Positions 6,354 to 15,526 are shown, counted from the stretch's first letter. The stretch: 64,000 nt of DNA from an uncultured Thermoplasmata archaeon (GCA_964015055.1 CAXHBG010000001.1:730-64729), one strand, 5' to 3'. Notes: generated from the letters alone by a model not told the origin. Numbers and translations: made by a program.

Positions 6354-6400
6354 ACTTAGGTCACCAAATTTAGAGTGGGATTAGTTTCACTCGAAGGTAA

Positions 6401-6440
6401 CTCGGGGGCTTCGGCCCCCATTTACCAAATTTTTATTTTT
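6401..6440. terminator. GC hairpin GGGGGC-TTCG-GCCCCC followed by a T-rich tract, between convergent genes
   Basis: A perfect 6-bp GC stem lies at 6404-6419. It is followed by TTTACCAAATTTTTATTTTTTT, and archaeal termination occurs at oligo-T. Confidence 0.5.
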
Positions 6441-7622
6441 TTAATCTAACCAAGGCACGCGTTGAATCGGTTTTGCACCTTCACAGATTCCTTCTCTTAC
6501 GATTGCATTAGGAAAAAGAGACTTCACTACGTCTTCGATGGTTTGATTTTTTGGTTTTTTACCAATTTCTAATTTCTCATTGTTGAGTATTGCGTTCGGA
6601 TATTTTTTCAAAAATTCGATTGCTCCGTCTTCCCAAGGGGCTGGGCCCTTGTGTGATACTATCTCAGGTAGTTTTCGCATTCCAGTTTCCAGAACAATAT
6701 AACCTTCACTACCCATATTTGCATTCCATGCAATAGGTTCAAAGTCATGAAGCGCTCTGTATATTTTCCTTCCTTGTTTCTGCAACCATGGCATTACGGT
6801 TTCTTCATTTTCTCCTGGAAGTGGTAAAATAATACTTGTCAGATTCCCTTGAAACTCTCTTTCCTTGTAATTAGGGAAAAAGAAATTATGTGATGGTTTA
6901 TCAAGAAACGATTTAGAAGCTAAAATGGCAGTTCCGAGTCCTTTCAAAGTTACTCCTGCAGCTACATTTCTTTTATCATCTACAGGATCACAAATCATCA
7001 CTGGAGATTCAGGAGTTTTCATTTTGTCAATAATAATTGGAGGCCTCCATTGGGACATTTCTTTTATTAGTTTTAAGAATCCTCCATATTTTATGCAAAG
7101 TATTTCTACTAAATAACCTGAAAATCCACCTACTGCAGAATTTGCACCATAAGCCCCAACAGCTTTTAGGAACTGTTTTGTTAGTCTTACCTCATTTTCT
7201 AACTCATTTATATTGGATATTACCCAATCAGTATGAAATGGCGTTCTATCCACTGCAGACACAGATTGAGTAGAGTCCTCTATTGCATAACAAGGTACTA
7301 GATCTATTCCTATACCATCTATTTCTCCTCTCAAATAGGGGTGCTGTGCGTAGAGTTCTTTACCGTTGGGTAGTATTTTCCTTGCCACGGCCAAGCCTTC
7401 TTTTTTCAAATCTGATCCCTTTTGAAATTTTAAAAAAATGTCAATGTCAGCTCCGGTCAGAAAAGTTCCTTTTGCTATCGATCCTACAACTTTAGGCTCA
7501 AAAGTCGACATTTCTAAAGCCTTTATTTTATTAAGAATGTTATCTCTTAAATTTATTATTTTTTCTTTTTCTTCAACTTTAGGTTGGACCTCTTTTAAGG
7601 CTTCTCTGATTATATCCTTCAC
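6441..7622 (-). CDS. cca: CCA-adding tRNA nucleotidyltransferase (archaeal class I)
   Basis: GSIAKGTFLTGADIDIF is the class I nucleotidyltransferase motif. The length and overall pattern are typical of archaeal CCA enzymes. Confidence 0.85.
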   Translation of the reverse strand: MKDIIREALKEVQPKVEEKEKIINLRDNILNKIKALEMSTFEPKVVGSIAKGTFLTGADIDIFLKFQKGSDLKKEGLAVARKILPNGKELYAQHPYLRGEIDGIGIDLVPCYAIEDSTQSVSAVDRTPFHTDWVISNINELENEVRLTKQFLKAVGAYGANSAVGGFSGYLVEILCIKYGGFLKLIKEMSQWRPPIIIDKMKTPESPVMICDPVDDKRNVAAGVTLKGLGTAILASKSFLDKPSHNFFFPNYKEREFQGNLTSIILPLPGENEETVMPWLQKQGRKIYRALHDFEPIAWNANMGSEGYIVLETGMRKLPEIVSHKGPAPWEDGAIEFLKKYPNAILNNEKLEIGKKPKNQTIEDVVKSLFPNAIVREGICEGAKPIQRVPWLD

Positions 7623-8122
7623 TCTTCTTCATCTGCATGGCTCACTTTACCTTTGCGCCATGCTTTTATTCTTTCTTTTTCGGCTCTTTTCCTTAAAGTT
7701 TCAATGTCATCTTTAACGGGAAGGAATATAGGAATTATGAATATTATAAGTCCGATAATTAGACATAATAATCCCCATAATATTTGTCTACCTGTAGTTA
7801 GGGCCTCTAAGAATAGAGAAAGGAGTACAAGAGATATAATGGTGGATATCCAAATTATTTTTCTGAATGCCTTTTCAGAAATGACGTATTTATCTTTTTC
7901 CTCTAGTATTTCAACTGAGAAATCAGCACTCGGAATTACTATATCTTCTTCTTTGCTAACCGGCCTCTCGGCTTTTAATTTTCGTAAGTAAAGGTGACCA
8001 GCTATTCCAGAAATTACAAATGTAGCTTGGCCGTATCCGGGGTCTCCAGCAGCCGTTGCAGCCCAAACAGCGTATAGCATAGTTAGCCAAATAGTCACTA
8101 TTATTGTATTATACAAATCCAT
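7619..8122 (-). CDS. polytopic membrane protein, last gene of the complex III-associated operon
   Basis: I trimmed the start to MDLYNTII to avoid a 67-nt overlap with the upstream gene. There are several hydrophobic helices. Confidence 0.45.
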   Translation of the reverse strand: MDLYNTIIVTIWLTMLYAVWAATAAGDPGYGQATFVISGIAGHLYLRKLKAERPVSKEEDIVIPSADFSVEILEEKDKYVISEKAFRKIIWISTIISLVLLSLFLEALTTGRQILWGLLCLIIGLIIFIIPIFLPVKDDIETLRKRAEKERIKAWRKGKVSHADEEE

Positions 8123-8132
8123 GTTCAAAATC

Positions 8133-9143
8133 TTAGACTTTACTTTCCATGGTAATTGCTTCAACAGGACAAGCAAATGCACAAAGAGTACATCCGACAC
8201 AAGTATCGTTCAAAATTAAAGCTTTTTTGGATTCAAACTGAGATGTTCTTGCGTTTAACTGCCAAGAAATCATATCAATTGATGCAAAGTTACAATAGTA
8301 AACACATTGAGTACAACCTATGCATTTTTCATTATTAACTAAGGCAATGAAATCTTTACCTTGAGGAAGAGATTTGAGAGTAATTTTTCTCAATTCTTTA
8401 AACATTTCCTTAGCTTTTTCTATACCTGTTGTAGGCAATTCCTCATTATCTAAAGCTTCTTTAACTCTCTTGAGCCACTTATTTGGTTTGTGAAAGAAAA
8501 GGGATGTAGTTCCCATTGCCTGATATGCAGTGGTACCTGCACTTTCTTCTAGAACAGTTTCAGCTTCAGACTCTACTACTGCCCCAGAGGCAAAAGAAGT
8601 CATACTTTCAACTAAATCTGACTGAAACGCACCATCACTATCTACACAAGCTAGCTTAGACATCGCTCCGTTCATCCATTGGTCAGCAGGATCTTCGAAA
8701 TCAACATCGCAATCTACTCTGTCGTGAATTCTGGAACCGCCCATGTCTTCCATAGTCTTGTCCCAATCTTTTCCGGATTGACAGAATAAATCATAACCTG
8801 TATCGCCAAGTGCACAAATTGAGAAATGAGTGTTGGTTAGTATTTTGCCAACACCTACCGCAGCTTCGTACAATTCTTCCGCATTATCTGGCATTTCTCC
8901 TTCTCCCCATGTTGAACAGACAATCATTACTCTGGACATTCCCGACATTGAATTGATATCAAAACCGTCCATGTCGTGAACGGTTGGATTCAATCCGTAT
9001 TTGGAAGCCTCTTTCTTCCATTTTCCTGCAAGTCCTTCGGAGTTGCCGCTTTGGGAGCCGTACAAAATATGTAAGTCGCGATTTCCTTCTGTTGCAAATG
9101 CAGTAATATCTACATCAGACACTATTTTCCATCCTCTAAACAA
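8133..9143 (-). CDS. flavodoxin-like FMN domain fused to a 2x[4Fe-4S] ferredoxin domain
   Basis: The N-terminal ILYGSQSGNSEGLA is the flavodoxin FMN loop. The C-terminus has CIGCTQCVYYC and CVGCTLCAFACP cluster motifs. Confidence 0.7.
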   Translation of the reverse strand: MFRGWKIVSDVDITAFATEGNRDLHILYGSQSGNSEGLAGKWKKEASKYGLNPTVHDMDGFDINSMSGMSRVMIVCSTWGEGEMPDNAEELYEAAVGVGKILTNTHFSICALGDTGYDLFCQSGKDWDKTMEDMGGSRIHDRVDCDVDFEDPADQWMNGAMSKLACVDSDGAFQSDLVESMTSFASGAVVESEAETVLEESAGTTAYQAMGTTSLFFHKPNKWLKRVKEALDNEELPTTGIEKAKEMFKELRKITLKSLPQGKDFIALVNNEKCIGCTQCVYYCNFASIDMISWQLNARTSQFESKKALILNDTCVGCTLCAFACPVEAITMESKV

Positions 9144-10048
9144 GCGACTAAGAATTGCATTAAATCCATCATTTCATAATCATGGTGATGCCCATCTTCA
9201 GGATTCATTCTTTCTTCGTTAAGCATACACTGCATGTGCATGTAGCATTTTGGACATCCACCTAGCATAAGGTCAATTCCGGCGTCAGTACCTTGATCTA
9301 ATCTTTTTCGACGTACAGCTTTAGTAGCATCATTACAATACATCATCGAAGATACGCCACAGCACAATGCTCTCTCTTTGTTGTTTTCAAGCTCAACCAT
9401 TGTAGCTCCATCGACTAATTGTATCAAATCTCTAGGAGCTTCATACTCTCCCATCATTCTTCCTAGCCGGCAGGGATCATGGTAAGAAACGGTCACATTT
9501 TCAGGAGCTTTGAACTTCAATCCTCTACCCTGTAAAGTTTGTGTAATATGTTCAACTTTTATCCCAAGTATGTTGGGCAAATCGTAGTCTACAGCAAAAG
9601 TACGATAGCATTCAGCACATGAGCACGTTAGAATCTTTATTCCAGATTCTTTTAATCGCCTCATGTTATGTTCCTTTAAAGCATCATAAACTTCCAAATT
9701 ACCTTGCCATAGCTGGTCATGGCCTGAACATTTGAACACATTCATATCCAGAATTAAAGGGTCGATTTCTGCATAATTTAATAATTTAATTGAAGCAGCA
9801 GCAATTGATGCGTGATCAGCGTCTCCTTTGTTCAAGTGTGTAAATTTGACTTCAACATCCATAAAGTCGACACATCCAGGAAAATATCCATATTCATGAT
9901 ATCTTTCAGGCTTCCATTCATTTGATTCTTTGTTCATTGCATCATCTACAATTAGTCTTTCAAAAAGTGGATGAGGAATTGATCTTGCGTATGTTTTTTG
10001 TCTAGGCTTATCGCTCATAAGCGACACCTCCTGCAGGAGTGCCTCCAA
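9122..10048 (-). CDS. CCG-domain Fe-S protein, HdrB/GlcF/SdhE-like
   Basis: The sequence is cysteine-rich, with a signature LCCGVS and a final GCPKC. Further Cys clusters are FPGC, TCSCAEC and HDPC. The true start may be the internal MSDKPRQ at 10018. Confidence 0.7.
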   Translation of the reverse strand: MEALLQEVSLMSDKPRQKTYARSIPHPLFERLIVDDAMNKESNEWKPERYHEYGYFPGCVDFMDVEVKFTHLNKGDADHASIAAASIKLLNYAEIDPLILDMNVFKCSGHDQLWQGNLEVYDALKEHNMRRLKESGIKILTCSCAECYRTFAVDYDLPNILGIKVEHITQTLQGRGLKFKAPENVTVSYHDPCRLGRMMGEYEAPRDLIQLVDGATMVELENNKERALCCGVSSMMYCNDATKAVRRKRLDQGTDAGIDLMLGGCPKCYMHMQCMLNEERMNPEDGHHHDYEMMDLMQFLVACLEDGK

Positions 10049-11144
10049 TACTAGGTAAATCTAGTGCGGCACCTTCAGTGGATGCCCCCAATGTAGCTAG
10101 AAGCCTTTGTTCTAGCACATAATCTACGTATTCGATATTTTGTGGACATACTGCAGTACACATTCCACAGGAAATACAGGACCAAAGAGCTACTCCATCG
10201 TGTTTATTTTGGAATGTATTGAATATAATATTTAATTCATGCTCACCTTCCATGTCTCTAACGGGACATATGTCATCACATAATCCACATTGATAGCAAC
10301 GATTTAGTTTGAATTCATAAATACGTTGCATTCTCCTATCTTGGATACCTTTAGTGTAAAGGTCAAATCTTTCTTCATCACTTAGGGGTTTGGCACCTTC
10401 AGATCGTCTTCTATCAAGGAAAAGGTAAGTTAACAGTGCACCTCCGATGGGACCCCACAGCGTAAGTGTGTATAGCAGGTCTGTAGTAACTTCTGGGTAA
10501 TATAGAGCAATATTGGCATTAATTGAAAAAACTGACAGCATGACTACCATTATGATGCCGTATACTCCAATAGCAGCCCTAACTGGGTCTTCAATAGGTC
10601 TTCTTTCATGTCCTCGATTTATTACATCACCGTATTGAGGATCAATGATGGCACCCAATGCCCTATCGATAAATGGAACAGCTACTACTAGCCCAATGAC
10701 AAGACCTTGTACAAGGGTTCCCCATACTTTTGCACTCATTAAAAATAGTTCAAAATCTTCTAGCCCCAAGAAGGGAATCATAGACAGAGGTAATCCAATT
10801 TTTAAATCGGTAGCAACTTTAAGGCATCCAAAAGCCCACAATAAATACCAATCAGGTAGTGGCGGAGGATAAGCAGTACCGGCTGTTGGGTCTGCAGATT
10901 CGTGTAGTGGTGGTGGAATGAATGCCCCTAAGTAAAATAAAATAGATATGACATAGAAAGTATAGATGGCATCTCTTGATAATTCATGAGGGTAAAGAGG
11001 TTCACCCTTGACTAAACCAGCTTCTAGTACAGAGTGATCCTCACGGTTTTCAAGTTTTCTAATAGTATCAAGCTCTTGTTGCTCTTTTATCGATTCGGCT
11101 ATCATTTCAGCAGCATCGTCTTCCAAAATTTGCTCTTCGCCCAT
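10008..11144 (-). CDS. cytochrome b6f subunit-IV-like membrane domain fused to a C-terminal 2x[4Fe-4S] ferredoxin (HdrC-like) domain
   Basis: ADPTAGTAYPPPLPDWYLLW matches the PEWY Qo-site motif of PetD (the C-terminal half of cytochrome b). After this come CYQCGLCDDICPV and CISCGMCTAVCPQ. The start overlaps the cytochrome b6 stop by 1 nt. Confidence 0.75.
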   Translation of the reverse strand: MGEEQILEDDAAEMIAESIKEQQELDTIRKLENREDHSVLEAGLVKGEPLYPHELSRDAIYTFYVISILFYLGAFIPPPLHESADPTAGTAYPPPLPDWYLLWAFGCLKVATDLKIGLPLSMIPFLGLEDFELFLMSAKVWGTLVQGLVIGLVVAVPFIDRALGAIIDPQYGDVINRGHERRPIEDPVRAAIGVYGIIMVVMLSVFSINANIALYYPEVTTDLLYTLTLWGPIGGALLTYLFLDRRRSEGAKPLSDEERFDLYTKGIQDRRMQRIYEFKLNRCYQCGLCDDICPVRDMEGEHELNIIFNTFQNKHDGVALWSCISCGMCTAVCPQNIEYVDYVLEQRLLATLGASTEGAALDLPSIGGTPAGGVAYER

Positions 11145-12100
11145 TAGTGAGGTTCAGCCTCCCCTTGTATCCATACTAAAGCCATGTGAATAATCATTAG
11201 AACAGTACCTACCAAAGGGAGCACAAATATGTGCAACCAGTACATTCTTGTGACAGTATCTCCTGTAACTTGTGTTCCTCCGAATACAATTTGTGCCATC
11301 AAAGGCCCCATTGCAGGAATAGAAGTAGCCATTTCGAGACCTATAGCAGCGGCAGCATAACCAAGGGCATCCCAAGGCAATAAGTAACCGGTGTATCCAA
11401 AGAAAATAGTAACCATCAAAAGTATGACTCCTAAAATCCAATTTACTTCTCTCGGATTTCTATAAGCACCTACAAAATAAACTCTCATCATGTGCAAGAA
11501 TACTGCTGCAACCATGAAGTGAGCTGACCAATGATGAATGGCTCTAATAATGTATCCAAAAGAGACCTGAGTCATGATTAGTTCCATTGATTGATATGAT
11601 CCAGAGGTAGCATTACCATCTTCGTCAAAAACTATTTCACCATCAGGAACATAGTAGAAACCAAGATAAATTCCGGTGATCACTAAAACAATATAGGCGA
11701 AAAAGGAAAGTCCACCTAACGAGTAAAATGGATACCAATACCAAACAGATTTTACATTATATCTTTCAGTATGAGATTGAGGCATTGTTCGTCCACTTGA
11801 AGGTAAAAGTGTGAATACAACTGAATAATATTCTCTTTTGGCCAGAGAAGCATATCTGTGTAAAGCAAATCTTTCATCAAACCAGTTCCATGTCGCCAAT
11901 ATAACTCTAGGTAATGTTCCTGAAACATACAAATAGCCTACAGTTAAAACAGCCATAAGTAATTGTAAAAAGATTAATGGGAATGTATATTTTCTCATCA
12001 ATTCTTCAATAAGAGGAGGGTCACCAGAAGCTGCACTAGCTGGCAGTGTTAAGAACGTAATACTTCCTAAAAGTGTAGCTAAGAATAGTTTTATTTTCAT
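11144..12100 (-). CDS. petB: cytochrome b6-like protein (N-terminal half of cytochrome b, complex III)
   Basis: IRAIHHWSAHFMV, HMMRVYF and GYLLPWD are hallmark cytochrome b/b6 motifs with heme His ligands. I set the start at MKIKLFL, which gives a 4-nt ATGA overlap with the Rieske stop. The listed ORF starts 24 nt earlier. Confidence 0.85.
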   Translation of the reverse strand: MKIKLFLATLLGSITFLTLPASAASGDPPLIEELMRKYTFPLIFLQLLMAVLTVGYLYVSGTLPRVILATWNWFDERFALHRYASLAKREYYSVVFTLLPSSGRTMPQSHTERYNVKSVWYWYPFYSLGGLSFFAYIVLVITGIYLGFYYVPDGEIVFDEDGNATSGSYQSMELIMTQVSFGYIIRAIHHWSAHFMVAAVFLHMMRVYFVGAYRNPREVNWILGVILLMVTIFFGYTGYLLPWDALGYAAAAIGLEMATSIPAMGPLMAQIVFGGTQVTGDTVTRMYWLHIFVLPLVGTVLMIIHMALVWIQGEAEPH

Positions 12101-12771
12101 CCTTGTCCACAATATTTGAGCCACTCGATTTGAGTCATTAGCCCAATTAAACCTCCATCTTTTTCAGCTATTGGGACTACAGGAAGGCCGTACGGAGCAG
12201 GTCCTTCTAATAATTCAGCAGCCATAACTTCACGTCCTTGTTCATCAACATTTTTAGTAACTGAGAGGGGATCAAAAAGAGATAAATGGCATGGACATAA
12301 AAACATATTTTCATAATCGTTTCCGCTAATGGTACTAGTTCCTTCCGCAGTGAATACGGGTTTGCAGCATAAGTGTGGGCATTTATAAGTATGATATGCC
12401 ATTAGGTAAGCGTTTCCATCGTCGACGCTTATTCCTAAACCCTCCATAGTTGGTTCAGCGGGAACTTTGGCTAGAGCAAGCTGTATTTCACAAGTACCTA
12501 ATTCTTGTTCCATCTCTTTTGGTCCCCAATTCACTATGGCTACATCCCATAGATTGAAATCCTCTTTTTTAGCAATATTGCCAGCCATATTTTCATACCA
12601 TTTTCCGCTCTCAGATTTATAAGTTAAGGTCTCGTGTGCATCATCCTCATTACACCTTGTTACGGGTGGAGGAAGTAATGTCTTAAGTGCAGGAACAGTT
12701 AAAGCAGCAGTCATTCCAGCGCCGGCTAATCCAATTGCACCTTGCAGAAATCCTCTTCTTGTTATTTTCAC
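12097..12771 (-). CDS. petC: Rieske [2Fe-2S] protein with Tat signal
   Basis: RRGFLQG is a twin-arginine motif. CPHLCC...CPCHLS are Rieske boxes I and II. Confidence 0.85.
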   Translation of the reverse strand: MKITRRGFLQGAIGLAGAGMTAALTVPALKTLLPPPVTRCNEDDAHETLTYKSESGKWYENMAGNIAKKEDFNLWDVAIVNWGPKEMEQELGTCEIQLALAKVPAEPTMEGLGISVDDGNAYLMAYHTYKCPHLCCKPVFTAEGTSTISGNDYENMFLCPCHLSLFDPLSVTKNVDEQGREVMAAELLEGPAPYGLPVVPIAEKDGGLIGLMTQIEWLKYCGQG

Positions 12772-12773
12772 TA

Positions 12774-12977
12774 TTACCTTTCAAGTTTTGTAATAACCTT
12801 ACTCCTCCTTTTCTTCAATTCTAAAACATCGGGCAAGAATGATCTTCTGTAGAAATCGAGCATCAGCCCCAGTATCATAAATGCCATAGCCAAGGTAAAT
12901 GACAAAAATTGTTGATCCCATCCTTGTATGATTCCGTAAATAAATAACGAGTCATACATTATTTCAAGGACTAGCAA
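12774..12977 (-). CDS. small membrane protein (TTG start), possibly longer or fused upstream
   Basis: The listed ORF is 67 aa with one or two TM helices. The same frame stays open for 60 more codons upstream without ATG, GTG or TTG (see findings). Confidence 0.4.
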   Translation of the reverse strand: MLVLEIMYDSLFIYGIIQGWDQQFLSFTLAMAFMILGLMLDFYRRSFLPDVLELKKRRSKVITKLER

Positions 12978-13125
12978 AATTAGGACAATTGCAAAGATTT
13001 CTCCTTGCTCTTTTCCTGGAGTTTCTCTAACAACCTTACCTAAATCTTCATCTTTGTATGTACCTAATAGCTTTTGCGCATCTTCAGGTGTAATGTCACC
13101 TCTTGCAATCTTCTCAAGTAATTCG

Positions 13126-13821
13126 TTAACCTCGGTAATGGGAACTACCTCCTCGTATTACTATGTATGCAAATAAAACCATCACAAATACAACAGCCAT
13201 TGATATCAGAGCAATCCAGTACTGCATTAGGCTTACGCCTAGTTCATGTATTGAAACTTCCTCAGATACTATTTGTGGAGTACCTATGGAGACAGCAGAG
13301 ATGTAGCCCCATTGATCTCCATTTGTTCCTACCCCATTTACTACATTGTAATAAATTGTGAATAGAGCATCTCCAGCACCTTCGCTAGGAGATGTCCATT
13401 GGAACGTCCAATTGCGTTGTGCGTTACTATCAGCATTGTGTGAAATGTATTTTCCGCCTTCACCGATCCAATAAAGCGCATCAGTCTGAAATGCGCCCTC
13501 GCTAACCTCAGCTAGGAACCCACCATATCGAATAGCATCAGGTTCAGAAATTACAGTTGTATCATTGATTACAAGTGAAATATTGTATGTTGAATCAGGA
13601 ATATACTTTGAAGGTATGCCCTCGAGCATGTACATACCTTCGTCAAGTTGTTCATCCATGTGACAAGAGCAACCGTTGGCTATACTGTCTTTTGCCCAGT
13701 CCTCCCCAGCTCCTTGCTGAGCACCTCCTGCAGGGTAACCATTGACACTCATACCGACTGACATGACGGTTATCAATAAGATTGCTAATAGTGCGTAAGT
13801 TCCTTTTTGATTTATAGCCAA
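13126..13821 (-). CDS. exported protein with signal peptide, about 170-aa ectodomain and C-terminal TM anchor
   Basis: The N-terminal hydrophobic leader is MAINQKGTYALLAILLITVMSV. A C-terminal helix is followed by RGGSSHYRG. The ectodomain contains GCSCHMDEQLDEGMYM. Confidence 0.55.
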   Translation of the reverse strand: MAINQKGTYALLAILLITVMSVGMSVNGYPAGGAQQGAGEDWAKDSIANGCSCHMDEQLDEGMYMLEGIPSKYIPDSTYNISLVINDTTVISEPDAIRYGGFLAEVSEGAFQTDALYWIGEGGKYISHNADSNAQRNWTFQWTSPSEGAGDALFTIYYNVVNGVGTNGDQWGYISAVSIGTPQIVSEEVSIHELGVSLMQYWIALISMAVVFVMVLFAYIVIRGGSSHYRG

Positions 13822-13860: not shown

Positions 13861-13925
13861 CGCTATATAAAAATATAGTATATTTTAGGCACTTTTTGTA
13901 CAAGGCTATAGTATTATTAAATAAC
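13861..13925. promoter_or_regulatory. divergent promoter region with a perfectly palindromic TATA element CTATATAAAAATATAG
   Basis: The region is AT-rich and lies between divergent gene starts at 13821 (minus) and 13940 (plus). A second TATA-like element, CTATAGTATTATTAAATA, lies nearer 13940. Confidence 0.3.
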
Positions 13926-13939
13926 TGTTTTGATAGTTC

Positions 13940-15526
13940 ATGAAGGGTAGTAAATTAAGTGAAAAAACAGGCTTAATTTTACTAGGTCTTCTGACGTTTA
14001 CATTTCGCTATCCTATCACAGAGACACCTACAGGTTCAGATAATTTTTACTATATCTCAGCAGTCAAAGCTATATTGATTCACGGAGAAATATTTTGGGC
14101 TGAGAATATACTTTCAATATATGGTTTATTTCCTGGGACAGCTCCATTAGGAAGTCTAATACTAGCTAGCACAATTACTGAAATTACGGGGTTATCAGTT
14201 CATAATTATCATTTGATACATAGTATTTTCTTATCATTATTATCTACTTTTGGATTCTTTCTTCTCTCAGGTGAATTCACTACAAACTACAAGAGCCGTT
14301 GGTTTTCATCTTTAGCATTTTCACTTGCTCCTAGGTTTCTAACTTTTACTTTGTGGAGATTTTCATTACGTTTTTCTTTAATTGCATTACTTCCTTTTTT
14401 TATGTGGGCTATTCTCAGAATAATGAATAAAAAATATGGACGTAATCCTAAAAAATTACTGATTTTATTATTAATCTTCACTCTACTTCTTCCTTCATTA
14501 CATAGAATGGGATTACTTTTACCAGGTTTTTTTATATCATTTTTCGTATCTTTTTTATTGTGGCAATGGCAAGAAAACGCATTGAACAGAGAGCGTGCAG
14601 GGAGGCAAGTTTTTACATTTATATTATTTTTAGCTACATATCTGTTTTACCTTCAATACTTAGATTTTTCACCCTATTCTCCTGATGATGAGATGATTGG
14701 AGTTTATTATCTAAGAGAGGGGACAATTTTATCAAATATAGTCAACCTTGGTTTTTACTATCTGATAAACGTGGGGCCAATCATGTTTTTATCATTAATA
14801 GGAATAATTTTTTGGATTCAAGAAGGAAGAGTGCCATTTAGCTACATGTTTTCATTTACATTATTGGCATTATTCTTGTTTTCGATATCAGATTTAATTT
14901 ACATCCCATATCTATTCACTTTTTTCATAATAGTATTTGTGGCTCCTGGAGTAGATTTTTTCTTAGATAATCTTCAGAATTACAAAGCAAGGCTAGGTGC
15001 ATTTCTTTCAATATTATTGATGTTAACAATATCATTTTCTAGCTTAGATGTGTCATACAGAGTAGATGCTCATGAGAGAGAAGAATTTTACTACTCGTAT
15101 AACATTAGCGAGAGTAGCATTTCTACAGGCCTTTGGATCAATGAAAACTTTTATTCAGAAATTATTGAGTCCAACGATCAAAAAAAACCTAGAAGAGTAG
15201 TAGCCTACTCAAATTCAATAAATTTGGCTGATGCATCAGAATTATCTTCAAATCTGATAGATTTATCCGGAATGGAATTAAAGCGCTATCCAATTTTTGA
15301 TTTATACTGGTACGCAGAAGATCATTTATGGAAATGGGAAAATGTTTTAAATCAGACTAATTTCGATGTAAATTTATCGCTAGTTAATCTAGGAATGTCT
15401 AACTTTAGCGGTAAATCATCAACATCTTCCATTACCGTTGACAGTTACTACAAGAGTATGCCAGATTATAATTTTAAGTTGTATTATGATGAAGAGTTAG
15501 CATTGTATTGGACAAACAATTATTAA
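13940..15526 (+). CDS. large polytopic membrane protein with C-terminal soluble domain (GT-C-like glycosyltransferase candidate)
   Basis: About 10 hydrophobic helices make up the first two thirds. The tail is hydrophilic and rich in N-x-S/T. No catalytic motif was recognised. Confidence 0.45.
   Translation: MKGSKLSEKTGLILLGLLTFTFRYPITETPTGSDNFYYISAVKAILIHGEIFWAENILSIYGLFPGTAPLGSLILASTITEITGLSVHNYHLIHSIFLSLLSTFGFFLLSGEFTTNYKSRWFSSLAFSLAPRFLTFTLWRFSLRFSLIALLPFFMWAILRIMNKKYGRNPKKLLILLLIFTLLLPSLHRMGLLLPGFFISFFVSFLLWQWQENALNRERAGRQVFTFILFLATYLFYLQYLDFSPYSPDDEMIGVYYLREGTILSNIVNLGFYYLINVGPIMFLSLIGIIFWIQEGRVPFSYMFSFTLLALFLFSISDLIYIPYLFTFFIIVFVAPGVDFFLDNLQNYKARLGAFLSILLMLTISFSSLDVSYRVDAHEREEFYYSYNISESSISTGLWINENFYSEIIESNDQKKPRRVVAYSNSINLADASELSSNLIDLSGMELKRYPIFDLYWYAEDHLWKWENVLNQTNFDVNLSLVNLGMSNFSGKSSTSSITVDSYYKSMPDYNFKLYYDEELALYWTNNY

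Follow-up and report, generated by a model that had tools for sequence, protein, structure and literature searches.

A b6-type Rieske/cytochrome b complex with a predicted cytoplasmic electron wire in Marine Group III archaea

Introduction

The split complexes of the cytochrome b6f/Firmicute type (PetABD, QcrABC) and the halocyanin-Rieske/cytochrome b cluster of haloarchaea have in common a Rieske protein exported by twin-arginine translocation (Tat), a four-helix cytochrome b6 and the b6 spacing of the haem-ligand histidines. The same features are found in the system described here, an operon of eight genes (g1 to g8, Table 1) on the minus strand of a 64,000-nt stretch of DNA from an uncultured Thermoplasmata archaeon; the whole stretch is hereafter called the window. 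Judged from its sequence, the operon encodes a b6-type Rieske/cytochrome b complex (complex III) with what is proposed to be a built-in cytoplasmic electron wire. The likeness to the b6f/Firmicute-type complexes extends to a separate subunit IV with the motif PDWY and, in deep relatives of the window operon, to the haem cn cysteine, and the likeness to the haloarchaeal cluster to an upstream gene of the DUF7318 family, which was named from haloarchaea. Unlike the b6f/Firmicute-type complexes, however, the window has a subunit IV with a fourth helix and a cytoplasmic domain with two [4Fe-4S] motifs, followed by CCG-domain and flavodoxin/ferredoxin proteins. It has no cytochrome f, c1 or fused cytochrome c, in the place of which stands a reeler-like protein (g1), and no haem cn cysteine.

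The cytoplasmic part resembles EtfD (Rv0338c; PDB 9ojn) of the electron transfer flavoprotein (ETF):menaquinone oxidoreductases, in which two cubane [4Fe-4S] motifs are likewise followed by two CCG domains and the first CCG motif likewise lacks its second cysteine (C-T-G in EtfD, C-S-G in g6). EtfD is a non-catalytic wire that conducts electrons inward from ETF: they pass the CCG clusters, then a pair of cubane clusters and finally haem b before reaching menaquinone (PMC13083937). Between them, its CCG domains bind two clusters, a linear [3Fe-4S] and a closed noncubane [4Fe-4S], the former being linear because the motif reads C-T-G instead of C-C-G (PMC13083937). Nevertheless, the membrane domain of EtfD is of the NarI/HdrE-like type with five helices and one haem, and it has no cytochrome b6 and subunit IV, no Rieske protein and no quinol oxidation (Qo) site. 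In addition, EtfD His583, which completes the noncubane cluster, corresponds to an invariant Glu in the g6 family (C-A-E-C), and the partner of EtfD is ETF, whereas the window operon encodes a tethered flavodoxin or ferredoxin. In a partial survey of the window no ETF gene was found, in the operon or elsewhere.

Three further systems share part of this design. HdrDE and HdrBC combine an HdrC-like di-cluster domain with an HdrB-like CCG fold and are associated with a membrane-bound b cytochrome, and the window also follows HdrD/HdrBC in that the HdrC-type 2x[4Fe-4S] domain lies ahead of the CCG domains. The b cytochrome of HdrDE is, however, of another family (the NarI-type HdrE, as against cytochrome b6 plus subunit IV), the first CCG motif of the window protein is degenerate, and, whereas HdrDE has CoM-S-S-CoB as its substrate, the window belongs to an aerobic heterotroph in which methanogenesis is absent. 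The anammox complexes Kuste4569-4574 and Kustd1480-1485 likewise connect a Rieske/cytochrome b core through a cytoplasmic Fe-S chain to a flavin, but they do so with an FAD/NAD(P) oxidoreductase module, together with multihaem c subunits and with Rieske proteins whose potential is very high; profile searches with Pfam and NCBIfam revealed no NAD(P)-binding oxidoreductase or multihaem c domain in g1 to g8. Finally, in the bacterial 'PDWF-FeS' clade a bc-type cytochrome b is fused to 4Fe-4S, MvhD or ferredoxin/flavin-oxidoreductase domains (Kao and Hunte 2014). This clade differs by its PDWF motif, the absence of a Rieske gene from the cluster and of any reported CCG domain, and by being bacterial and small in number. 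As a whole, the window complex lacks defining features of each of the families compared; its component parts are all known, and in concept their combination comes nearest to the anammox complexes, to the 'PDWF-FeS' proteins, and to HdrDE and EtfD, which join the same Fe-S/CCG module to a different b cytochrome.

Archaea of the Marine Groups II and III (MGII and MGIII) are among the most abundant heterotrophs of the ocean. The complex design spans the Poseidoniia and is scattered in other archaeal lineages. We found no account of such a complex in MGII or MGIII in the literature searched, the coverage of which is incomplete and so no proof of absence; the MGII and MGIII genome papers within it mention merely 'an electron transport chain'. 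Moreover, the public annotations of the proteins concerned ('Fe-S oxidoreductase', 'HdrD', 'heterodisulfide reductase-related', 'dihydropyrimidine dehydrogenase PreA subunit') mask their identity as subunit IV of a complex III.

The core and its cytoplasmic domains

The Rieske protein g3 matched the NCBIfam family TIGR01416 locally (3e-8) and the profile of the Tat signal (1.3e-4), and in the Protein Data Bank (PDB) the complex III Rieske protein 7yr9_A (2.3e-4); its score for the Pfam Rieske family was under the Pfam cut-off. Both the sequence TRRGFL and the cluster-binding loops (CPHLCC...CPCH) are invariant in 37 related loci. With its CxH...CxxH loops and Tat export, g3 has what marks the Rieske subunit of the bc1/b6f superfamily. 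The cytochrome b encoded by g4 is strongly supported by Pfam (Cytochrome_B, 1.4e-38) and by the alignment to cytochrome b6 of known structure (1q90_B, 3.1e-41), in which all four histidines fall at the b6 spacing. They provide the ligands for the pair of bis-His b haems, carried by helices B and D, that typifies the superfamily. In one respect g4 departs from b6f proper: the cysteine of haem cn (Cys35 of b6, FYCxGG) is replaced by a serine (FYSLGG, around 11725).

The third core protein, g5, consists of four hydrophobic segments, the sequence DRRR and then two CxxCxxCxxxCP motifs. The PDWY sequence, which is of the PEWY type characteristic of the Qo site, is invariant. The match to Cytochrom_B_C is weak (0.016, under the Pfam cut-off), and g5 also matches the C-terminal half of the actinobacterial QcrB (1.5e-4). 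The soluble part was recognized by Fer4_8 (3.8e-10), by the HdrC family of NCBIfam (TIGR03290, 3.9e-8) and by an HdrC structure (7bkb_C, 1.1e-5). It has been reported that the PDWY variant goes with menaquinol and a low-potential Rieske protein (PMC4122944); a quinone of the menaquinone type and a Rieske protein of low potential are accordingly indicated for the window complex. The C-terminus of g5 is predicted to be cytoplasmic, because its subunit IV has a fourth helix after a cytoplasmic N-terminus. Likewise, the Fe-S and CCG domains lack signal peptides and so the entire module would have to be cytoplasmic, since without a Tat signal the clusters could be assembled nowhere else.

The CCG protein g6 matched the Pfam CCG family in two stretches (2.9e-16). 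Its second CCG motif is complete (HDPC...LCCG...GCPKC) and its first is degenerate (K-C-S-G-H-D; C-A-E-C), so that the two complete motifs of HdrD and HdrBC (Cx31-39CCx35-36CxxC) are not present. The nearest protein of known structure is mycobacterial EtfD (9ojn_A, 9.3e-14), compared to 1.8e-5 for HdrB. In the alignment with EtfD the K-C-S-G of g6 falls at C538-T539 and the C-A-E-C at C581-P-H583-C584, and g6 retains the full set of five cysteines of the second cluster. For modelling, a chimera of g5 and g6 was aligned to the natural fusions described below. The single-chain AlphaFold model was poor (predicted local distance difference test, pLDDT, 56.5 overall) and usable in its CCG part alone; a fold search with that confident part returned EtfD first, then LutA and HdrB.

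The g7 protein matched Flavodoxin_1 (1.4e-26), the flavin mononucleotide (FMN) domain of CysJ (1ykg_A, 1.8e-22) and, with its C-terminal part, Fer4_21 (8.5e-14). Its FMN phosphate loop reads YGSQSGNSE, as expected for the flavodoxin fold. Taken together, the sequences indicate that the Rieske/b6 core is joined on its cytoplasmic side to a chain with four or more Fe-S sites, which would end in a tethered FMN or di-cluster domain. A preliminary description of the window had already assigned the cytochrome b, Fer4, CCG and flavodoxin domains and had recognized a split b6-type Rieske/cytochrome b operon in which a subunit IV with two [4Fe-4S] motifs is followed by CCG and flavodoxin-ferredoxin proteins; the profile searches bear out both.

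Some further features of cytochrome b were observed. The N-terminus of g4 is extended by about 120 residues (11720-12100), with two extra predicted helices, one of which resembles a signal peptide, and the cytochromes b of two distant loci (L040 and L044) are 758-832 aa long with a Big_5 domain. The C-terminus of g4 (11144-11175) reads VWIQGEAEPH, and the ending VW(I/V)QGxAEPH-stop is invariant in MGIII, MGII and the distant loci. The position of b6 Arg207 is occupied by Trp.

Conservation and variation

We have collected 37 species-representative MGIII loci from the GTDB genomes (L001-L037). The order g1 to g8, together with the downstream gene of the CCA-adding enzyme (cca) and an upstream divergent gene for a 528-aa membrane protein, is found in all of them as far as the contigs reach. 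Distant relatives were collected by an exhaustive HMMER search with g5. At around 40% identity these relatives keep subunit IV plus Fer4, many run on into CCG (543-932 aa), and the fusion of subunit IV and Fer4 is present in every one of them. A profile search yielded more than 1,400 such proteins (E<=1e-10), mostly of a 920-940-aa form from MGII. Because Fer4 and CCG are fused to subunit IV in MGII and in other archaeal lineages, these modules are clearly parts of the complex. The advice to treat the region as one unit thus stands, and the gene order is clearly not peculiar to the genome of the window.

The gene order also recurs in the distant loci L040-L044. In Candidatus Poseidoniales (MGII; L041 and L042) a choice-of-anchor V gene, a gene for 148 aa, a Rieske-sized gene and cytochrome b are followed by a 932-aa fusion of subunit IV, Fer4 and CCG. 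L040 has a reeler-like gene, DUF7318, a gene for 260 aa, cytochrome b, a 789-aa fusion and a polyferredoxin. The core of L043 is as in L040, with the Fer4 and CCG proteins split and a small ferredoxin. In L044 the core precedes a split HdrA-like flavoprotein and an MvhD-like protein (9909-13074). Finally, L038, from a metagenome-assembled genome (MAG) labelled Halobacteria, has a cytochrome c, DUF7318, a Rieske-sized gene, cytochrome b and subunit IV-Fer4, without CCG. The MGII fusion (8001-10799 in L041/L042) carries an insertion of around 390 residues between helices 3 and 4 of subunit IV, which is probably extracellular.

The redox sites themselves vary. The first CCG motif has a cysteine at its second position (CC) in MGII and six deep MGIII loci, a serine (CS) in the window and 28 of 35 MGIII loci, and reads CT or CV elsewhere; the C-A-E-C and G-H-D sequences are invariant across the g6 family. 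The haem cn cysteine (YCLGG) is found in 14 related loci, comprising deep MGIII, MGII, L038-L040, L043 and L044; the window and 29 MGIII loci have a serine instead. Motif-based typing of the N-terminal part of g7 gave a flavodoxin for 14 MGIII loci, the window and CG-Epi1 among them, and a 2x[4Fe-4S] ferredoxin for 15 others, of which CG-Bathy1 is one; this interchange indicates that the domain would act as a one-electron, low-potential carrier.

Within MGIII these variants form a series. It begins with loci that have CC in the first CCG motif, the haem cn cysteine and a ferredoxin as carrier; in the next step, represented by CG-Bathy1, CC has become CS; in the third the haem cn position is a serine as well; and in the fourth, that of the window, the ferredoxin has in addition been replaced by a flavodoxin. 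Every step loses iron or a cofactor, and the series may be linked to iron scarcity or oxygen in surface water. The loss of the haem cn cysteine comes after that of the second cysteine of the CCG motif. The loci cited for the haem cn cysteine are L027-L033 and L037-L044, and those cited for the swap within g7 are L012, L014, L016, L017, L019, L021, L024, L025, L027-L031, L033 and L037.

The preliminary description took the host for an ammonia-oxidising archaeon (Nitrosopumilales). The genome and protein matches are all to MGIII/Poseidoniia, the closest being the Marine Group III euryarchaeote CG-Epi1 and other Poseidoniia MAGs with 93% protein identity and the same gene order. The rationale that ammonia oxidisers require low-potential reductant therefore falls. 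Other genes of the window code for aconitase, pyruvate phosphate dikinase, PntB and archaeal pilins with their ATPases; the first three are expected of an aerobic heterotroph.

Direction of electron flow

We propose, with a probability of somewhat less than one half (about 0.45) and by analogy with EtfD, that the cytoplasmic modules form a wire on the electrically negative (n) side, which supplies the b haems and quinone with electrons taken from donors in the cytoplasm, be they ferredoxin, flavodoxin or flavoproteins. The donors could be ferredoxin or flavodoxin reduced by 2-oxoacid oxidoreductases, or an ETF-like flavoprotein. Electrons would pass from g7 to g6, on to the Fe-S domain of g5 and to the n-side haem (bn) of cytochrome b, and from there to a menaquinone-type quinone at the quinone reduction (Qi) side. 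Meanwhile the Rieske/Qo side would oxidize quinol in an ordinary Q cycle. The complex would in that case be a quinol oxidase and a hard-wired cytoplasmic-donor:quinone reductase in one, comparable to EtfD and to the ferredoxin:plastoquinone reductase activity that has long been proposed for cytochrome b6f.

Several considerations favour inward flow. EtfD, the nearest characterized relative of g6, runs inward. The partner modules vary in the way of interchangeable input modules: the cytoplasmic partner differs by lineage (a polyferredoxin, a small ferredoxin or HdrA-like and MvhD-like proteins), as does the carrier of g7 (ferredoxin or flavodoxin). The deep, ancestral members keep the haem cn cysteine, and haem cn is the n-side haem to which, according to one proposal, ferredoxin delivers its electrons in b6f (PMC5600118). 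Moreover, an inward branch spares the Q cycle, and a heterotrophic host produces reduced carriers rather than lacking them.

A number of points weigh against this interpretation. The direction of flow is not readable from a sequence, and most systems that combine a cytochrome b with an HdrD-like protein (HdrDE, DsrMK, Qmo) run outward from quinol. The argument from the Q cycle matters if this is the only complex III of the organism, which is an assumption. The link between haem bn and the first cluster is putative, the lineage of the window being without the haem cn cysteine, and the g5-g6 model, poor outside the CCG part, yields no cluster distances. Furthermore, it is by synteny and gene overlap only that g7 and g8 would be counted as members of the complex.

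The same physical architecture would also fit the reverse direction, in which the HdrDE-, DsrMK- and Qmo-type systems are known to run. The preliminary description had allowed for either direction. Quinol would then be bifurcated at the Qo site: one electron would go via the Rieske protein to oxygen, the other via the b haems and the Fe-S/CCG chain to the tethered flavodoxin or ferredoxin, yielding low-potential reductant. The variant of L044, with its HdrA-like and MvhD-like proteins, is in line with such a route, and outward flow has been hypothesized for the Rieske/cytochrome b complexes of the anammox bacterium Kuenenia with their cytoplasmic NAD(P) oxidoreductase subunit (PMC12954380). 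However, an aerobic heterotroph obtains reduced ferredoxin through its catabolism and does not evidently need reductant derived from quinol, and diverting the electron of the b chain would abolish the Q cycle if this is the sole complex III. In addition, the low-potential Rieske protein that goes with PDWY (PMC4122944) would offer less driving force than the very high-potential Rieske proteins of anammox bacteria. We therefore regard bifurcation towards the cytoplasm as rather unlikely.

The proposed inward wire treats the CCG protein as a conductor and g6 and g7 as parts of one chain, and both assumptions can be questioned. The CCG domains might be catalytic, with the complex working as a true (hetero)disulfide or thiol reductase that is linked to quinol, as in HdrD/DsrK, or g6 might be an acceptor subunit of the GlcF/GlpC/LutA type for a soluble dehydrogenase. 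The completeness of the second CCG motif, the retention of both CC motifs in MGII and the deep MGIII lineages, and LutA and HdrB among the fold matches agree with this, as do the GlcD-like FAD proteins that are encoded convergently to the core in L043 (12222-15236). On the other hand, Hdr chemistry requires two noncubane clusters (PMC13083937), and the C-S-G of the first motif in the window and most MGIII loci, with C-T or C-V elsewhere, argues against disulfide cleavage of the Hdr type, at least in the lineage of the window. A catalytic role of the second cysteine is unlikely, since it can be lost without loss of the operon. Moreover, no genes for a dehydrogenase or for thiol cofactors are conserved beside the operon in the MGIII loci, and the host is neither a methanogen nor a sulfate reducer. 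Catalysis at the CCG domains thus appears improbable, and the heterodisulfide-reductase-like chemistry suggested earlier is weakened, the more so as the nearest solved relative is EtfD and not HdrB. It is just as doubtful that the fused Fer4 domain alone belongs to complex III, with a structural, regulatory or redox-sensing role, and that g6 to g8 are neighbours of separate function that share its transcript. The cca gene does illustrate that an unrelated gene can become coupled to the transcript, L038 has subunit IV-Fer4 without a CCG gene, and in MGII the ferredoxin gene lies on the opposite strand. Yet several lineages have Fer4 and CCG fused to subunit IV, which connects g6 with g5, and a Fe-S protein like g7 is found downstream of the CCG module in MGIII, L040, L043 and L044.

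If the complex III of the MGII and MGIII archaea has a cytoplasmic Fe-S branch built in, the coupling in these cells between catabolism, through ferredoxin and flavoproteins, and respiration would depart from the textbook scheme. The family would be a test case both for n-side electron exchange between a b6-type complex and ferredoxin and for a Qo bifurcation that is redirected to acceptors in the cytoplasm, the scheme put forward for anammox bacteria. Should the inward direction be true, the complex would be a natural, hard-wired ferredoxin:quinone reductase on a b6-type complex, an activity long debated for b6f; should the outward direction be true, it would be a source of low-potential reductant in the respiratory chain of aerobic marine archaea.

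Gene arrangement and neighbouring features

Calling of open reading frames (ORFs) on the DNA of the window gave eight abutting frames from 13821 to 7619, in agreement with the preliminary description, and the junctions it listed from g3/g4 to g7/g8 also agree with the DNA. More specifically, g3 and g4 meet in ATGA (12100-12097), g4 and g5 in TAATG with an overlap of 1 nt (11144), the overlap of g6 and g7 spans 9122-9143, and g7 and g8 are separated by 10 nt (8123-8132), g8 starting with ATG at 8122. The maximal ORF of g6 starts from TTG at 10048; the ATG at 10018, which gives an overlap of 11 nt with g5, fits the homologues better. The count of eight needs one addition: because the g8 stop overlaps the GTG of cca (GTGA, 7622-7619), the coupled run comprises nine genes. 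The position of cca after g8 is kept in all MGIII loci whose contig extends there. It is probably co-transcribed with the operon without being a functional part of the complex.

Table 1. Position of the operon genes and associated features in the window
Feature	Position	Strand	Description
g1	13126..13821	-	231 aa, exported, C-terminal membrane anchor; reeler-like/choice-of-anchor V beta-sandwich
g2	12774..13145	-	DUF7318 membrane protein, ~124 aa, two predicted helices
g3	12097..12771	-	Tat-exported Rieske [2Fe-2S] protein; TRRGFL; CPHLCC...CPCH including the disulfide cysteines
g4	11144..12100	-	Cytochrome b6-type cytochrome b; four haem-ligand histidines at b6 spacing
g5	10008..11144	-	PetD-like subunit IV, PDWY, plus HdrC-like 2x[4Fe-4S] domain (CYQCGLCDDICP, CISCGMCTAVCP)
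g6	9122..10018	-	Cytoplasmic protein with two CCG domains; maximal ORF to 10048
g7	8133..9143	-	CysJ/MioC-type flavodoxin (FMN), acidic linker of ~100 aa, C-terminal 2x[4Fe-4S] ferredoxin domain
g8	7619..8122	-	Membrane protein of 167 aa, three predicted helices, basic C-terminus; no family
cca	6441..7622	-	CCA-adding enzyme; GTG overlaps the g8 stop, translationally coupled
TATA-like box TTTTTATATA	13864..13873	-	~45 nt upstream of g1; pattern match

In a simple pattern scan the TATA-like box was the sole one on the minus strand between 6200 and 14000, and a simple scan of the window for T-runs (>=6) revealed none between the operon genes. The lone box and the absence of such runs fit a single transcript, which is a pattern argument only, with TTTTTATATA as its putative promoter.

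The NCBIfam family choice_anch_V was matched by g1 at 7.5e-18. The AlphaFold model of g1 (pLDDT 59.7) has the reeler domain of F-spondin as its top fold in the PDB (5e-6), and the sequences G-C-x-C-H, RYGGF, SHN and GDQW are invariant in the alignment. No CxxCH sequence occurs in the operon, so that it offers the Rieske protein no c-type cytochrome (c1, f or fused c) to pass electrons to. Because a cytochrome c occupies the operon position of g1 in L038, g1 may be the partner or acceptor of the Rieske protein. The conserved G-C-x-C-H (residues 50-54; 13660-13680) and conserved His residues of g1 correspond to no known haem or copper motif. The possibility that g1 is itself a c-type cytochrome or blue copper protein found no support: CxxCH is lacking and the low-confidence model shows a reeler-like sandwich only.

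The g2 gene had been described as an ORF of 67 aa behind a gap of 148 nt. In fact, the in-frame sequence upstream of its TTG at 12977 (ITEVNELLEKIARGDITPEDAQKLLGT; ITEVNELLEK...EDAQKLLGT) shows conservation at the protein level in every MGIII locus, and the protein is accordingly longer (Table 1). The conserved N-terminal 50 residues (12978-13145) overlap the g1 stop, and the extended protein matches DUF7318 with an improved score (8.5e-15, profile positions 5-94). In the window and its nearest relatives none of the start codons ATG, GTG and TTG is available for these residues, the position having been checked in L001-L037. The GTG that many lineages have at the start position is replaced by GTT in the window, which suggests that g2 is made by a non-canonical start or by termination-reinitiation.

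At the other end of the operon, g8 is conserved after g7 in MGIII. The divergent membrane protein upstream of g1 (13940-15526, plus strand) is polytopic, has no Pfam match and is encoded at the same position in MGIII with 37-97% identity. A scan of the window with Rfam gave one tRNA and no match inside the operon. A GC hairpin with flanking A/T runs (GGGGGCCGAAGCCCCC, 6400-6440) lies between the convergent cca and pilin genes and looks like a two-way terminator. Two contigs labelled as bacterial, L006 (NZTZ01000011, Chloroflexota) and L008 (CAXGWP010000033, Nitrosomonadaceae), carry the MGIII operon with 86-89% identity and were probably mis-binned in their MAGs.

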